From: Patescibacteria group bacterium
GTDB lineage: Bacteria; Patescibacteriota; Microgenomatia; Levybacterales; UBA12049
Direction of reading: 5' to 3'
DNA: 47,411 bases
Assembly: GCA_030917445.1 (NCBI GenBank)
Contig: JAUPUR010000016.1
Location: forward strand, 1-47,411
The notes beneath the pieces are model-generated. The model saw only the letters and a program-made list of their open reading frames with translations, ran no database searches and was not told the origin of the DNA. Every line of letters starts with the position of its first letter. The first letter of the stretch is position 1. Positions 37,066 to 43,046 of this stretch are shown piece by piece. A program made the position numbers and the translations under genes.

Positions 37066-39324
37066 TTAAGCTTTCACAATACCAAAAACCTCAATCTCTC
37101 CACCACAGTACTTTATTATCCTGTCACATGCATCTTTAAGTGTCTTTTCTATTTGATCTGGAGAGATATCATATATTCCATCTACATTTACATAAAGATT
37201 TTTTGTCTCAAGTGTGACTGCAGTTCTTTTACTATCTCGGAAATTGAAATCGATATTATATCCACCAACTTTATCAAAATAAGCGATCTCTGTTGATTTA
37301 TACGAAGTCTCTTCCGAATCACCTAAAAGCTCTATTTTCTCTCCCTCTTGTGCAAATCTTAAAACTGTAGGGAAAAGTATAGAGTCAAAATCAAACGCTC
37401 CTATGGAAATTTTACTTTCAAGTACCACCATATTATATGCATCAACACAGGTATTAACGGTGTAGAGACCTTTTCCTGTCGCCAACCGTCTCAGAAGAGC
37501 TTCAGGGGACGGTCTTCGAGAATGATAATCAATTCCCATTTCTTTATAAAGTTTTCTATATTGCAATACCTCAGGAATTGTATTTATATCTTCAGTTGTA
37601 AGTGAAGAAAATGAACTCACTATTCTTTCTTTTTCTTCTTCTAAGTTTTTATCTATCTTTTCAATTGTGACACCTTTAATAACTGCAATACCTACTGATA
37701 TACTTGGAAATTTCTCAGAAACTTTCTGATCTATATGAAAATATCCTGTGTTTTTTAAAAGTGTTATCGGTGCATCGTTATTTTGCTTTAAAGATATATT
37801 CGAAACATCCTCAAATCGGGAACGAACAAAATCTTTATCAAGTGATAAGATAAGCCAACCTGCTTTTGGCCCATGTGATTTCCCAAGCAACGCCTGATAT
37901 AAAGCACCAAATGCATCTTTAGATGGAACATTTAATTCCTTTGACTTTTCATAAATTGCTTTTTGAAATGATTCAGGATCCCATTCTTCTAGCATCATGT
38001 CACTAACTTCTTTAAGAAATTTCTTTTGTAAATCATTCAAATCTTTCGCAGAAAGGGGGATCTCTTTTTGCACGGTAAATTTCTCATTTTCAGAAGCAAA
38101 TCTATCAACCCAAATACGCGCATATTTTGCCCATTCTTCGAGACCTTCTTTCTCAATATATGACTTCATATTAGGCATCTGGACAAACTGTGCTAGTGCT
38201 GAAAAACGGATTTGGGGAGGAAGTGTAATACTTTCATTCACCTGAGAAAGCTCAAAGATTCTTGCCATTTCCTCATCTGAATTTGACTCGTAAGCCAAAG
38301 CATATCTTTGGTATTCGTCAAAAAGTTTTGGGATCACATCTGGTTCATATGGATCAAAATTAGTTTGTTTTCTAATATCCATTTTAACAATTAAAAATCT
38401 GACAAGTTCTGGCGGAAGGATTTCTACCATATCAGCAGCAGCAAAACCACGACCTTTTGAAGATGACATTTTTTTACCTCCAATCAACATAAACTCATAA
38501 CTAACGGGGTAGGGTACATCATAATGGAATACTCTCTCACAAAAAAGTTTTGCCATATCATGTGATCCACCGGCACTCATATGATCTTTTCCAGCTCCTT
38601 CAACAGTTACACCAATTGCTTGCCACTTAGCTGGCCACTCAACTTTCCATGGAAGCTTTCCTCTCATCTCTAATTCGTCACTAAAGGGTGATACCTTACC
38701 TTCGTATCCACAACCCTTAGTCCACTCTGTTGCATCGACTGGACATCTATAAAAGACTTTTTCACCATCCCAATTAAAAACTCTTGTTGTTGAAACTTTC
38801 TGGCAATTTTCACAGTACACCTGAAAGGGATACCAATCAGATGGAAGATCTTTTTTATACATCTCTTTATAGATCTTTCTTATTTCCTCAGCGTTATCAA
38901 GAACAACTTTTATTCCAGGATTCATTTTCCCTGAGGTATACAGATCTTTAGTCCAAATTATTTCAGGATGGCAACCAATTTTGTTAAATGCTCCTTTAAA
39001 CTCATACGCATAATACTCAGCAAAATCTTTATACCCATCTACTGGAGATGGAATTTTGTATAAAGGCATACCTAAATATTTTTCAAAAATCTCTCGAGGT
39101 AAATAAGAAGGGATATCATCCATCGGATCGTGATTTTCAAAAACGTATGTATATTTTGTATTTACTCCTGCATCTTTAAGTGATTTATAAACGAGGTCAT
39201 GAAAAACAACACCAAGTAACGATCCTACGTGAACTCTTCCTGAGGGTGTTTTCATATCATCTACCCACTCAAGTGGTAAATTTCTTTTCTTTAATTGTTG
39301 TGCTACTTCGTCTGCCCAAAACAT
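37066..39324 (-). CDS. lysK: Class I lysine--tRNA ligase fused to a C-terminal B3/B4 (PheRS-beta editing-domain-like, COG3382-type) domain
   Basis: Class I LysRS: TPSGRVHVGSLLG (HIGH-type), KMSSSKG (KMSKS), ~525 aa. The extra ~225 aa read IPEVLQYRKLYKEMGIDYHSRRPSPEALLRRL..LYTVNTCVDAYNMVVLESKISIGAFDFD..FRDSKRTAVT. The ORF-track start at 39369 is TTG, and the first ATG is at 39324. Confidence 0.88.
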   Translation of the reverse strand: MFWADEVAQQLKKRNLPLEWVDDMKTPSGRVHVGSLLGVVFHDLVYKSLKDAGVNTKYTYVFENHDPMDDIPSYLPREIFEKYLGMPLYKIPSPVDGYKDFAEYYAYEFKGAFNKIGCHPEIIWTKDLYTSGKMNPGIKVVLDNAEEIRKIYKEMYKKDLPSDWYPFQVYCENCQKVSTTRVFNWDGEKVFYRCPVDATEWTKGCGYEGKVSPFSDELEMRGKLPWKVEWPAKWQAIGVTVEGAGKDHMSAGGSHDMAKLFCERVFHYDVPYPVSYEFMLIGGKKMSSSKGRGFAAADMVEILPPELVRFLIVKMDIRKQTNFDPYEPDVIPKLFDEYQRYALAYESNSDEEMARIFELSQVNESITLPPQIRFSALAQFVQMPNMKSYIEKEGLEEWAKYARIWVDRFASENEKFTVQKEIPLSAKDLNDLQKKFLKEVSDMMLEEWDPESFQKAIYEKSKELNVPSKDAFGALYQALLGKSHGPKAGWLILSLDKDFVRSRFEDVSNISLKQNNDAPITLLKNTGYFHIDQKVSEKFPSISVGIAVIKGVTIEKIDKNLEEEKERIVSSFSSLTTEDINTIPEVLQYRKLYKEMGIDYHSRRPSPEALLRRLATGKGLYTVNTCVDAYNMVVLESKISIGAFDFDSILFPTVLRFAQEGEKIELLGDSEETSYKSTEIAYFDKVGGYNIDFNFRDSKRTAVTLETKNLYVNVDGIYDISPDQIEKTLKDACDRIIKYCGGEIEVFGIVKA

Positions 39325-39349
39325 GTGCTTTATTATAAGTGATTGCTCG

Positions 39350-40315
39350 CTATTTCGAAAGTTTTTCAAAACCTTTCAAAAATGATGTTGCCATCTCCCC
39401 TAAATCACTTATATTGTATCCTCCTTCCTGAACAAGTAGAGTCGGTACTTTTAATGTTGAGATGTCTTCAGCCATCGATTGATAATATGGTATTGTTAAT
39501 TGAAATCCCCCAATTGGATCGTGTTCGTATGTGTCAAATCCTAAAGACACAATGAGATAATCGGGTTTAAATATCCGAATATCTGAAAGAGCACGCTGTA
39601 AAAATTTCTGATATTTTTGAGGTGTCGTTCCCAACGGAAGAGGATAATTCATTGTATACCCTTCTCCCTCTCCCCGTCCTTTTTCATCACTAAAACCTGA
39701 ACTATATGGGAATTTTACTTTTGGATCTGCATGAATTGAAACGTACAATACATCTGATCTGTCGTAAAAAAGATTTTGTGTTCCATTTCCGTGATGGAAA
39801 TCGACGTCAAGAATTGCTACTTTTCCATGTTGTGCTAAATAATGCGCTGCAATCGCGGCATTATTAAAGTAACAATAACCCCCCATCATTTTTTGCTCAG
39901 CGTGATGACCAGGAGGTCGACAAAGTGAATAAACAATATTCTCACCACCGATAATGAGTTCTGCTCCTGTTAACGCAACATTGACAGAACTATATGCTGC
40001 ACCATAAGTGCCTGCAGTAATAGGAGAGTATGTATCCATTATAAAATATGAGGGATACAATATCTCGTCATCACGTAATCTTTTTGACCTTGTTCTGACA
40101 AAATCAACATATACTTTTTGATGAAGCGCATGAATATGATCTAATGAAAATCTTCTTGGTGACATAAAAGACGTAAAATTATTATTTTTTAACGTCGTCA
40201 CTATTGACTCAATGCGATCAGCTTTTTCAGCGTACGACTCTTTAACCCCATCATATATCTCATATGGAGGATTATGTTCTTTATGTTTTTTTGTATAAAT
40301 AATTGGTAATTTCAT
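39350..40315 (-). CDS. Histone-deacetylase-family Zn amidohydrolase (protein-lysine or acetylpolyamine deacetylase)
   Basis: CRPPGHHA, DVDFHHGNGTQ, GFDTYEHDP. SD GGAGG lies 7 nt upstream of the ATG. Confidence 0.9.
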   Translation of the reverse strand: MKLPIIYTKKHKEHNPPYEIYDGVKESYAEKADRIESIVTTLKNNNFTSFMSPRRFSLDHIHALHQKVYVDFVRTRSKRLRDDEILYPSYFIMDTYSPITAGTYGAAYSSVNVALTGAELIIGGENIVYSLCRPPGHHAEQKMMGGYCYFNNAAIAAHYLAQHGKVAILDVDFHHGNGTQNLFYDRSDVLYVSIHADPKVKFPYSSGFSDEKGRGEGEGYTMNYPLPLGTTPQKYQKFLQRALSDIRIFKPDYLIVSLGFDTYEHDPIGGFQLTIPYYQSMAEDISTLKVPTLLVQEGGYNISDLGEMATSFLKGFEKLSK

Positions 40316-40359
40316 AAAATTTCCTCCTGCCAGCCGGCCGGACTGACAGTTCTCTGATA

Positions 40360-41394
40360 CTAGCTCCTTGTCATTCTTAGCATTGTATCAACTTGCACTG
40401 GGTCATAAAAGCTTTCTATGACATCCCGTGGCATATACATAAATGTGAAGTCACGAAGACTTCCTTCTGGGACATCTTGTCCATCGTTAACAAGAACATT
40501 TTGGACAATAATTTGAGGTGCACGCTCTCTACTTGGGACTATCAATCCTGCTCCTGCACCTGCACGATCTGATCGAGACTGAAAATTGCATTCAGCATAA
40601 ATAAGTGGCAATCCATTCCCTCCATGCCTAAAATCTGAAAGAATTCGACTATTAAGCATAGCGAGAGTCGCTGTCATAAGACCCCTTCCTGCATATTCAT
40701 CTCTTGTTCTCCATTCAGTATTTTCAACAAGATGAAGGTCACCTTCTCTCCCAGGGATTGATAATCTTTCAGCCATTGCTGCACTTACGATAGTACCATT
40801 ATCATGAACAGCACTAAACCAGACATCTCTATCAGTTGGGTCAGTTGTTCTAGATCCATCAAGCCTTCGCCTAAGTGCATCTACCTCATGTCTCTCCCAA
40901 CCAAAAGTCGGTCCCCAAAGACTATGTAATTGATCAACCTGATCCTCTTGAATAGAATCACTAAAATGTAGTCCGGATTCAACGACACTTCTTACCCTTT
41001 CAAGTGGATTACTCCGCATAACATCTGACTCCGTTGCTGATATCATCTGTTCTGTCGACGTTAATTGCTGCCTACTCGCTGAATTTTGTGCAAAATACAC
41101 TAAATATGCATTTTCTTGAGAAAATTCTTGGAGTGGTACAGCAACTTCTAATAAATGCTCAAACTCTGTTCCTGCAACAGCTTCAACAACTTCTTCACTT
41201 ACTACACCACGAAGTACCCCACGAGAAATCTGCGGATGATTTTCCACAATGGAGCTCACTCTCCTCACGTTTCTTCCGACTTCATCGAAACTTGAAGAAA
41301 AACGAGTAGCGTTTCCATAAATTCGATCATATGGTCTTCTTGTAACTCCAGCACTTCCTGTACTAGAAAATATTTGTTCTTTTTCTTGATTCAT
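40360..41394 (-). CDS. Hypothetical 344-aa protein, nearly lysine-free, C-terminal half GNAT-acyltransferase-like
   Basis: Strong SD AAAGGAGGTG with a 6-nt spacer before ATG 41394 (the ORF-track TTG at 41421 is unlikely). GNAT-like strand/helix pattern VHDNGTIVSAAMAERL..LHLVENTEWRTRDEYAGRGLMTATLAML..LIYAECNF..AGAGAGLIV. One Lys against roughly three dozen Arg. Confidence 0.75.
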   Translation of the reverse strand: MNQEKEQIFSSTGSAGVTRRPYDRIYGNATRFSSSFDEVGRNVRRVSSIVENHPQISRGVLRGVVSEEVVEAVAGTEFEHLLEVAVPLQEFSQENAYLVYFAQNSASRQQLTSTEQMISATESDVMRSNPLERVRSVVESGLHFSDSIQEDQVDQLHSLWGPTFGWERHEVDALRRRLDGSRTTDPTDRDVWFSAVHDNGTIVSAAMAERLSIPGREGDLHLVENTEWRTRDEYAGRGLMTATLAMLNSRILSDFRHGGNGLPLIYAECNFQSRSDRAGAGAGLIVPSRERAPQIIVQNVLVNDGQDVPEGSLRDFTFMYMPRDVIESFYDPVQVDTMLRMTRS

Positions 41395-41416
41395 ATTTTT
41401 CACCTCCTTTTTCAAA

Positions 41417-41444
41417 CACAAAAAAACCCCTTCTGAGAGGGGTT
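41417..41444 (-). terminator. Intrinsic-terminator-like hairpin B (AACCCCT-ctcaga-AGGGGTT + TTTTTgtgttt)
   Basis: 7-bp stem with a U-tract on the minus strand. It ends ~7 nt before the SD of the lysine-free ORF. Confidence 0.6.
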
Positions 41445-41455
41445 ACTTTTACACG

Positions 41456-41478
41456 AAAAAAGCCCCTCTTATGAGAGG
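41456..41478 (-). terminator. Weaker terminator-like hairpin A (CCTCT-cata-AGAGG ggc TTTTTT)
   Basis: 5-bp stem followed by a T6 run. Its 3' arm AGAGGGG can alternatively pair with CCCCTCT of hairpin B. Confidence 0.4.
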
Positions 41479-41516
41479 TTTTTCTTGTTTGCTACTAATG
41501 TAACACGTGTTTGCAT
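41469..41516 (-). other. Candidate 15-codon leader mini-ORF MQTRVTLVANKKNLS*
   Basis: The ATG is 9 nt downstream of a consensus -10 box. Two adjacent Lys codons (AAG AAA) lie just 5' of hairpin A. The stop TAA sits in the loop of hairpin A. Confidence 0.25.
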
Positions 41517-41525
41517 AAGAAATTT

Positions 41526-41553
41526 ATTATAGTCGAGAAATATTTTTTGTCAA
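41526..41553 (-). promoter_or_regulatory. Consensus sigma70-type promoter TTGACA-16-TATAAT, -35 overlapping the murB TGA stop
   Basis: Minus strand reads cTTGACAaaaaatatttctcgacTATAATaaatttcttATG. Both hexamers are perfect. Confidence 0.6.
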
Positions 41554-43010: not shown

Positions 43011-43046
43011 AATAAAGAAAATCTCTCTTTTTTTGCAGAGAGATTT
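43011..43046 (-). terminator. Terminator-like hairpin in the greA 5' leader (AAATCTCTCT-gcaaaaaa-AGAGAGATTT + TCTTTATTT)
   Basis: Perfect 10-bp stem at 43019-43046 plus a U-rich tail. It lies between the predicted greA promoter and the greA ATG, which is 14 nt downstream. Confidence 0.5.

Follow-up and report, generated by a model that had tools for sequence, protein, structure and literature searches.

In the attenuators formed by the Escherichia coli trpL, hisL, pheL, and pheM (pheST) leaders, a short open reading frame (ORF) with a cluster of codons for the regulating amino acid is combined with four RNA segments that pair in mutually exclusive ways, namely 1:2, 2:3 (the antiterminator), and 3:4 (the terminator with its U-run). 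The trpL ORF has 14-15 codons, with two tandem regulatory codons three codons ahead of the stop, and in pheST an aminoacyl-tRNA synthetase gene is among the genes under control. A second phenomenon of relevance here is cognate amino-acid bias, which was reportedly described by Alves and Savageau in 2005. Proteins that serve the recovery from shortage of one amino acid contain little of that amino acid (PMC4209129; Fasani and Savageau, 2014), and translation coded by Trp content has been described in Chlamydia (PMC3937554). In this study, we analysed a stretch of 47,411 nucleotides from a Patescibacteria group bacterium of the Levybacterales (GenBank assembly GCA_030917445.1, contig JAUPUR010000016.1, positions 1 to 47,411; hereafter the window), in which a protein of the GNAT acyltransferase family with a single Lys is encoded directly downstream of a short putative leader ORF containing tandem Lys codons. 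We consider it rather probable that this gene is the first in a lysine-limitation operon under leader-peptide attenuation, and that the enzyme it encodes avoids Lys codons as a case of cognate amino-acid bias.

The ORF at 41394-40360 on the reverse strand is real and no frame artefact, as the original prediction, which was made from the DNA letters alone, had assumed. Its ATG at 41394 is preceded by a GGAGG Shine-Dalgarno (SD) sequence, and the N-termini of 64 aligned homologues start at the same place. The 344-aa product contains one Lys and 34 Arg, in agreement with the earlier count of one Lys at residue 5 and roughly three dozen Arg; this sole Lys (codon 5, AAA) is located in a disordered N-terminus. 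That the surroundings are Lys-rich was also borne out: 29 other confidently called genes of the window have 7.0% Lys and 4.4% Arg, all other ORFs longer than 150 aa have at least 3.9% Lys, and the deacetylase encoded next to the GNAT gene has 21 Lys in 321 aa. Given the 7.0% Lys of these 29 genes, the probability of finding at most one Lys in 344 aa is 3.3e-10. Nevertheless, the charge is largely retained (K+R 10.2% vs 11.4% in the background), and the isoelectric point (pI) of the protein is 5.0.

Upstream of the GNAT gene, the window leader is predicted to have the architecture of a classical four-segment attenuator (Table 1). The -10 box of a promoter with a full consensus match ends 9 nt ahead of the ATG of the leader ORF, which has no SD sequence and begins at or beside the predicted transcription start (its translation is putative), and whose layout closely resembles that of trpL. 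The leader stop codon is located in the loop of hairpin T1 (-8.4 kcal/mol, z -3.0), and the terminator T2 (-9.9 kcal/mol) ends ~25 nt before the GNAT start. The antiterminator helix between them (-12.1 kcal/mol) is more stable than either hairpin. For the 101-nt leader RNA as a whole, the minimum free energy (MFE) has a z-score of -4.64, none of 200 shuffled sequences reached an equal value, and the MFE structure contains the antiterminator. As there is no room for a promoter after T2, all transcription of the GNAT gene must cross the T1/T2 hairpins. A locus whose GNAT protein is 75% identical to that of the window (L001) has the same promoter and hairpins; its leader peptide is MQTRMTIVANKKNLS (followed by a stop codon), and four of the six codon differences from the window leader are synonymous. 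No Rfam model covers this element, and a search of Rfam in the leader gave only sub-threshold noise, including a 21.7-bit match to Phe_leader at an E value of 0.87. Literature searches for a Lys-codon leader attenuator, attenuation of lysyl-tRNA synthetase (LysRS), and a GNAT/HDAC pair in Saccharibacteria returned nothing relevant, and the proposed lysine-codon attenuator of these bacteria of the candidate phyla radiation (CPR) has apparently not been described hitherto.

Leader ORFs with Lys clusters were found 5' of the GNAT gene in 33 of 39 assessable unique loci from Microgenomates and Saccharibacteria. They are 14-29 codons long, their clusters typically read SKKAKK, KAKK, or KKxKK, and they fall into two length classes of ~15 and ~25 codons that align poorly with each other. 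In 26 of the 33 loci, a promoter matching at least 9 of 12 positions ends 6-14 nt before the leader ATG, which implies a leaderless or near-leaderless message. Most related loci also carry CCCCTC...GAGGGG with a T-run 5' of the GNAT gene, and a terminator is present in 19 of the 22 loci analysed. When a strict definition was applied (a short ORF with at least three Lys in six codons plus a downstream terminator), such a leader was detected in 26 of 43 family loci but in only 1 of the 85 other upstream regions taken from these contigs (Fisher 1e-14). Moreover, in 13 of 19 loci the 5' arm of the terminator is significantly complementary to a segment that begins 8-12 nt 3' of the last Lys codon (combined p 8e-15), a spacing that would place the antiterminator segment just beyond a ribosome stalled on the Lys codons. 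This segment co-varies with the terminator: in the locus with a GGCCC-type terminator (L015), it changes to match. Folding with a simulated ribosome mask yielded, in many loci, the antiterminator when the mask was placed on the Lys codons and the terminator when it was placed on the stop codon. Lys accounts for 17% of leader residues, and 64% of leader Lys codons are AAG vs 28% in the coding background (p 6e-16); this preference may adjust how strongly the leader responds to wobble decoding or to the modification of tRNA(Lys), and it may also prevent slippage on poly(A) or contribute to RNA pairing. Compared with the E. coli attenuators, the proposed one would respond to lysine and occurs in CPR/Patescibacteria; its leader is apparently part of a leaderless or near-leaderless mRNA and occurs in two length classes, and the core regulated genes are an acetyltransferase/deacetylase pair and not a biosynthetic pathway.

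No leader was found in six unique loci (L006, L023, L027, L036, L037, and L040). In at least five of these loci (L037 and L040 among them), a protein of ~216 aa is encoded in divergent orientation instead, and the three such proteins that were scanned by Pfam all end in an ACT domain (ACT_7/ACT_9; L006:9260-9910(-), L023:5236-5892(-), and L027:6260-6907(-)). Operator-like inverted repeats, such as TTTGTCAAG...CTTGACAAA, are present in the shared promoter region of the loci without the leader. The ACT-domain protein could provide an alternative, protein-based amino-acid-responsive control of the same operon. The presence of the leader is associated with the Lys content of the GNAT protein: members from loci without it have 7-24 Lys (median 18, n=6), whereas the median is 8 in loci with it (n=32), which include all seven cases with at most two Lys (one-sided Mann-Whitney p = 0.003, in a comparison that covers ~5 independent clades and ignores kinship). 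The most Lys-rich members with examined loci come from clades that lost the leader. Thus, synthesis under scarcity of Lys-tRNA, which was one of the reasons suggested originally for the Lys depletion, gains support from a conserved Lys-codon leader upstream and from the stronger depletion where this leader is present.

Depletion of Lys proved to be family-wide. Lys and Arg account for a median of 2.3% and 8.0%, respectively, in 209 full-length members, of which 33 contain no more than two Lys and eight contain none. An ordinary content (at least 6%), which the original prediction had named as evidence against a conserved depletion, was observed in only seven. In each of 19 loci, the GNAT member is poorer in Lys than its own flanking genes, with a median ratio to these genes of 0.26 compared with 1.02 for 202 other ORFs (Mann-Whitney 2e-11); the corresponding median contents are 2.0% for the GNATs and 6.9% for the 202 neighbouring ORFs. 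Near-zero Lys occurs in at least nine separate clades of a neighbour-joining tree, beside relatives with 10-20 Lys. The alignment of the window protein with its 75%-identical orthologue contains 88 differences, of which only three concern Lys, each of them at a terminus of the protein or in an upstream TTG extension that was also aligned; in 14 flanking orthologue pairs, 16.5% of the differences concern Lys. Lys avoidance is therefore a trait that is selected and not compositional, that is family-wide and evolutionarily labile, and in which the window protein stands at the extreme. Rare Lys-rich members include P0158 (396 aa, 51 Lys), in which a QSRSDRAG motif after an invariant AECN is gone, and P0100 (352 aa, 32 Lys), in which it is retained.

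Under the attenuation hypothesis, the operon would be ordered as promoter, Lys-codon leader, terminator/antiterminator, GNAT acyltransferase, acetylpolyamine amidohydrolase (APAH)-like deacetylase, and, in this lineage, lysS. With ample Lys-tRNA(Lys), the ribosome would pass the Lys codons, reach the leader stop, and cover segment 2; T2 would then form, and transcription would end before the GNAT gene. Under scarcity of Lys-tRNA(Lys), the ribosome would instead stall on the Lys codons and cover segment 1 only, leaving segment 2 free to pair with the 5' arm of T2 as the antiterminator, and RNA polymerase would enter the operon. The GNAT protein would therefore be needed exactly when Lys codons are hard to translate, and selection would have purged these codons from its gene, mostly to Arg. 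The GNAT/deacetylase pair, in turn, might restore or safeguard the lysine supply through salvage or handling of N-acylated lysine-type amines. The same account would also explain why lysS of either class recurs downstream of the same leader, why other Lys-related genes are found around the pair, and why the trait is labile between lineages. Compared with known cases of cognate bias, the GNAT protein likewise would be needed under shortage of an amino acid in which it is unusually poor. However, it is extreme (0-2 Lys where ~24 are expected) and is not a recognised lysine-biosynthetic enzyme, and the bias affects one protein of the operon (two in Saccharibacteria).

Table 1. Positions of the predicted features of the locus in the window.
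Feature	Position	Strand	Details
Sigma-70-type promoter	41526..41553	-	TTGACA-16 nt-TATAAT, 12/12; overlaps the end of murB; best-scoring site in the region
Leader ORF (putative)	41469..41516	-	15 codons; MQTRVTLVANKKNLS then stop; ATG...AAG AAA AAC CTC TCA TAA
Tandem Lys codons AAG AAA	41481..41486	-	Proposed sensing codons
Hairpin T1 (1:2)	41456..41478 (hairpin 41478-41463)	-	CCUCUC-AUAA-GAGGGG then CUUUUUU; terminator-like
Antiterminator (2:3)	41437..41468	-	GAGGGGCUUUU (3' arm of T1) pairs with AAAAG..CCCCUC (5' arm of T2)
Intrinsic terminator T2 (3:4)	41418..41444 (hairpin 41444-41425)	-	AACCCCU-CUCAGA-AGGGGUU plus U run
SD sequence GGAGG of the GNAT gene	41403..41407	-	
Lys-depleted two-domain GNAT-family protein	40360..41394	-	344 aa; N-domain 1-145, GNAT domain ~140-320
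Intercistronic hairpin	40327..40349	-	CCGGCCGG at apex; 3' arm abuts the SD sequence of the deacetylase gene
Zn-dependent deacetylase, HDAC/acetylpolyamine-amidohydrolase type	39350..40315	-	321 aa, 21 Lys; PF00850, 1e-76
Class I LysRS with C-terminal B3_4 domain	37066..39369	-	tRNA-synt_1f, B3_4; TIGR00467 above cut-off

Beyond the GNAT/deacetylase pair, the gene neighbourhood varies among loci, but among 122 flanking ORFs LysRS recurs more often than any other family. In 8 of the first 20 loci, the pair is adjoined by a LysRS gene, which can be of either class (class I for the window, L001, and L008; class II for L019, L018, L004, and L005), and among later loci a synthetase is encoded a few genes downstream in L023 (class II D/K/N-type) and L028 (class I LysRS). 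As in pheST, an aminoacyl-tRNA synthetase gene is thus among the genes of the window operon: it overlaps the deacetylase gene or lies right next to it, and no terminator separates the two. In operons that are otherwise syntenic, one LysRS class looks to have been replaced by the other in the same slot 3' of the deacetylase gene, both between L019 and the window and between L023 and L028:9457-10974; NCBIfam confirmed L019:11978-13438 as LysRS and only placed L023:8979-11045 in the class II D/K/N Pfam family. Considering that the two LysRS classes are unrelated, the common theme of these neighbourhoods is lysine or Lys-tRNA and not contact with a particular protein. Genes for aspartate kinase, a Lys exporter, an Orn/DAP (diaminopimelate) decarboxylase, and an LPG-synthase TM protein are also found near the pair. 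In Saccharibacteria, an Orn/DAP/Arg decarboxylase and an LPG_synthase_TM protein (MprF-like membrane domain) are encoded within four genes of the pair (L024:2689-3975, L024:8571-9491, and L025:9542-10456) and may belong to the same lysine theme. A role of the pair in acetylation and deacetylation within the acetylase DAP/lysine pathway was unsupported, as no dap genes or genuine aminotransferase are nearby; of two Aminotran_1_2 matches near the pair, one is a serine hydroxymethyltransferase. The window LysRS carries a B3_4 domain (residues 604-756), the domain type of the editing site of the PheRS beta subunit; the same fusion is present in L008 and probably in the 768-aa LysRS orthologue of L001. 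Its presence points to an additional function of LysRS in these bacteria, either in tRNA binding or in editing.

The C-terminal half of the protein had been recognised as a GNAT fold and the N-terminal ~150 aa had been called unassignable, and both statements agree with structure prediction. An AlphaFold2 model with the family alignment as input (pLDDT 93.7) shows a GNAT fold at residues ~140-320; this superfamily is characterised by a mixed alpha/beta arrangement (beta1-alpha1-alpha2-beta2-4-alpha3-beta5-alpha4-beta6). Foldseek against PDB yielded 453 matches at E<=1e-3 with GNATs on top (2i79, SpeG, AAC(6'), Naa60, and RimI), and these matches are generic, with target-normalised TM values of 0.6-0.72 and 10-15% identity. 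The N-terminal 145 residues modelled alone (pLDDT 86) had no significant Foldseek match (best E 0.019). FemX-type two-domain transferases, which appeared in the full-length Foldseek list, were set aside as relatives (TM 0.25, rmsd 12 A). At the sequence level, the window protein scores 20.1 bits against Pfam PF13527 (Acetyltransf_9), under the cut-off of 25, and 27 of 64 family members match this model at E<0.01 (best 1.9e-6); the window GNAT had no match in NCBIfam, in PDB sequence searches (single sequence and profile), or in PADLOC. The position of the CoA pyrophosphate loop (Q/R-x-x-G-x-G/A, between beta4 and alpha3) is occupied by E-Y-A-G-R-G-L at 233-239, in which the first position is not Q/R; the loop glycines G236 and G238 are present in 64% and 86% of 210 sequences, respectively. 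Invariant residues include an Arg cluster in the N-domain (R20, R24, R58, and R62) and E224, E227, and E268 in the GNAT domain, and the family alignment has no conserved Lys column. A catalytic Cys269, whose acyl-enzyme intermediate might endanger nearby Lys, was also considered and dropped because this Cys is only 74% conserved (Thr in 15%). The family comprises ~175 clusters (50% identity, E<=1e-30), and all named members are from CPR/Patescibacteria (Levy-, Woese-, Davies-, and Blackburnbacteria, and Saccharibacteria). Taken at the level of its homologues, the protein appears to be a two-domain enzyme specific to these bacteria; it is probably an acetyl-CoA-dependent N-acyltransferase, and its conserved acidic residues suggest a cationic amine as substrate. 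Several members have N-terminal extensions of 60-230 aa in which no domain was identified (P0061, 576 aa; P0068/P0071, 405-410 aa; L010, 415 aa), and in L007 (= P0071) the Lys leader is still present 5' of the extended ORF.

The deacetylase gene is located directly 3' of the GNAT gene on the same strand in 41 of 42 unique loci, with a spacing of -4 to ~+50 nt. Its best PDB sequence matches are APAHs (9gkz at 1e-81, 6phr, and 3q9b), followed by HDAC6, and it contains the motifs LCRPPGHH, QEGGY, and DPIGG, the last corresponding to the PIS gatekeeper with Ile kept and Ser replaced by Gly. RPPGHH, xGGY, and PIS gatekeeper motifs characterise the bacterial polyamine deacetylases of cluster 4, in which an extended L2 loop including R95 drives head-to-head dimerisation and restricts the active site (PMC11532494). 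The window deacetylase is devoid of this ~20-residue polyamine-specificity loop (residues 85-104 of the 9gkz chain are uncovered in the phmmer alignment), which may leave its active site more open than that of polyamine deacetylases. A loop-less partner of APAH type suggests N-acetyl-lysine-type or other N-acetylated amines as substrates. Similarity to SpeG/APAH is thus found on both sides, SpeG being among the top Foldseek matches of the GNAT protein and the partner having the RPPGHH, EGGY, and PI(S/G) motifs; unlike in that system, however, the L2 loop is missing and the GNAT matches are generic. Another system to be compared is the acetylation switch of Bacillus subtilis, in which AcuA (GNAT) and AcuC (HDAC-type, class I-like) are encoded next to acsA. 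There too a GNAT and a classical Zn-dependent deacetylase are encoded together, and an Acs-like AMP-binding enzyme and CoA genes are located just 5' of the pair in two related loci. However, the window GNAT is twice the size of AcuA, has an extra N-domain, and has no NCBIfam or Pfam match to it; the partner is nearest to the APAH/HDAC6 type, with AcuC-type chains far weaker, and neither protein has an NCBIfam match. The Acs-like gene sets belong to one Microgenomates clade (L023:3488-5239 and L028:3668-6843), contain an Acs-like AMP-binding enzyme, a CoA-binding protein, and a CTP_transf_like+DUF359 (CoA-biosynthesis-like) fusion, and resemble the Bacillus acsA-acuABC neighbourhood.

Several observations weigh against the attenuation hypothesis. 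We deduce lysine responsiveness solely from the architecture of the leader, and the window leader has just two Lys codons. For the 15-codon leader class, which includes the window, equilibrium folding with a stalled ribosome still gives T2, and a kinetic argument is needed. Some leader-bearing members keep 14-19 Lys, and the few clades behind the leader/Lys comparison count here as well. The operon partners are not Lys-poor (21 Lys in the deacetylase, 9% in LysRS, and 5.5-6% in aspartate kinase), which means that a need for translation during Lys shortage does not apply to the operon in general; a low Lys content of the deacetylase is limited to Saccharibacteria (4-13 Lys), and in Microgenomates its content is ordinary. 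In addition, the part of an acetyltransferase in lysine supply is unexplained, and no DAP-pathway genes or aminotransferase accompany the pair. The pressure on Lys is therefore specific to the GNAT protein (to the pair in Saccharibacteria), as would be predicted by self-protection from auto-acylation, which had been proposed in the original prediction and which we regard as possible, if doubtful as the main cause. In this alternative, the acceptors of the enzyme are lysine-type primary amines (Lys in proteins, free Lys, cadaverine, or other polyamines), its own Lys have been lost so as to spare itself and its partner from acetylation and inactivation, and the leader and the linkage to LysRS are incidental or only regulatory. 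Conserved acidic residues of the GNAT fold (E209, E224, E227, E268, D304, and D315) would fit a cationic amine, the obligate partner is a deacetylase acting on N-acetylated primary amines, Arg has substituted for Lys with retention of charge, and across loci the relative Lys content of one protein rises with that of the other (rho 0.68), all of which, together with the protein-specific pressure, are in line with self-protection. The 16 most Lys-rich members also more often lack an R274/D276 motif (31% retain it vs ~70%). However, a loss of the active site in Lys-rich members could not be established beyond this weak trend: Lys content and retention of 37 conserved sites show no overall correlation (rho -0.01), and P0100, P0045, and P0019 combine 20-32 Lys with an intact motif, indicating that Lys is compatible with the active site. 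Self-protection also fails to predict the association between leader and Lys depletion, and to our knowledge the known amine-acetylating GNATs have not been reported to be Lys-free. Both explanations may apply.

The attenuation hypothesis was further compared with explanations that dispense with lysine supply. A functional requirement for Arg (for CoA phosphates, carboxylates, or RNA) combined with drift, by which a few lineages would have lost their last Lys by chance, is improbable in our opinion. It could draw on 16 alignment columns with at least 70% Arg, nine of them invariant or nearly so, and on the family baseline of already ~2.3% Lys, against which one Lys in 344 aa is only moderately extreme. 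Yet these columns make up about half of the 34 Arg, ~18 variable basic positions hold no Lys in the window protein at a genome-wide K/(K+R) of 0.6, the lineage of the window and L001 kept avoiding Lys over 88 substitutions, and the near-zero state is recurrent among clades; moreover, an acidic protein is no general binder of polyanions. Evasion of Lys-directed tagging was another suggestion of the original prediction, by analogy with Lys-free toxin A chains and proteins delivered into a host. In such a scenario, the pair would be injected into a host bacterium and escape, for example, pupylation in the actinobacterial hosts of Saccharibacteria. It is in the Saccharibacteria loci specifically that both proteins have few Lys, an HDAC-like effector is known from Legionella (PMC11532494), and lysine deserts have been reported as prevalent among pupylating bacteria (PMC10665810). 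The GNAT protein shares with such deserts and toxin chains a long Lys-free stretch kept across divergence, but there the avoidance of ubiquitin or Pup tagging is the reason, whereas here a rationale in translation supply is available and tagging is not indicated. Since the GNAT protein has no signal peptide or secretion-associated neighbour, since its context is conserved and of housekeeping type (greA, murB, and lysS) and looks vertically inherited, since PADLOC gave no matches, and since the operon would be under a leader that senses intracellular Lys-tRNA, we consider delivery very unlikely; the ORF list of the window, which covers 47 kb of the genome, contains no Pup or ubiquitin-like genes. 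Finally, recent horizontal transfer from a GC-richer, Arg-preferring donor was considered, a GC-richer donor having been named in the original prediction as a possible contribution. The local GC shift exists (40.9% in the GNAT gene vs 36.7% in the window, about 4 points), and GNAT-level GC is also reached in other window regions. It is explained by amino-acid content (Arg, Gly, and Val codons): G+C at codon positions 1/2/3 is 0.565/0.438/0.232 in the GNAT gene vs 0.511/0.367/0.224 elsewhere, that is, raised at positions 1 and 2 and native at position 3, and thus the shift is no sign of transfer. Considering also that AGA/AGG are the main Arg codons in the GNAT gene as in the rest of the window, that synteny with relatives is conserved, and that all homologues found are from CPR bacteria, transfer is refuted as an explanation, and we give it hardly any credence.

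If the attenuation hypothesis is correct, a Lys-tRNA-sensing attenuator would be among the first regulatory mechanisms defined for CPR/Patescibacteria, a group that has largely escaped cultivation, relies on hosts for amino acids, and is almost unexplored in its gene regulation, and leader-peptide attenuation would be extended to lysine and to leaderless mRNAs. It accounts in a concrete and testable way for a protein with 0-2 Lys in a proteome with 7% Lys and flags an uncharacterised GNAT/deacetylase pair as central to the handling of lysine shortage by these symbionts; unusual depletion of an amino acid can thus reveal hidden regulatory elements. A broader and quite tentative extension is that an unrecognised CPR lysine-limitation regulon exists, with the first lysine-codon attenuator (on leaderless mRNA), a new lysine-salvage or -fidelity pathway of the GNAT and the loop-less deacetylase as its universal cargo, and Lys content as a translational gate. 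The Lys-free acetyltransferase would then be made during starvation, and the Lys-containing deacetylase and LysRS only as Lys-tRNA recovers, so that Lys content within one mRNA would act as a built-in timer of a reversible acetylation response.

Two further hairpins were observed in the window. The palindrome CCGGCCGG, which had been pointed out as rare just after the GNAT stop codon, occurs once in the window (40334-40341; 0.01 expected) and forms the apex of the intercistronic hairpin. The folding energy of this hairpin is not better than that of shuffled sequence (z -0.17); its stem is kept in the 75%-identical relative with a different apex, and a role in the processing or stability of the mRNA or in translational coupling is conceivable. 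The other hairpin, a perfect 10-bp palindrome, is located at 43019-43046, between greA and its upstream gene, and is terminator-like on both strands.

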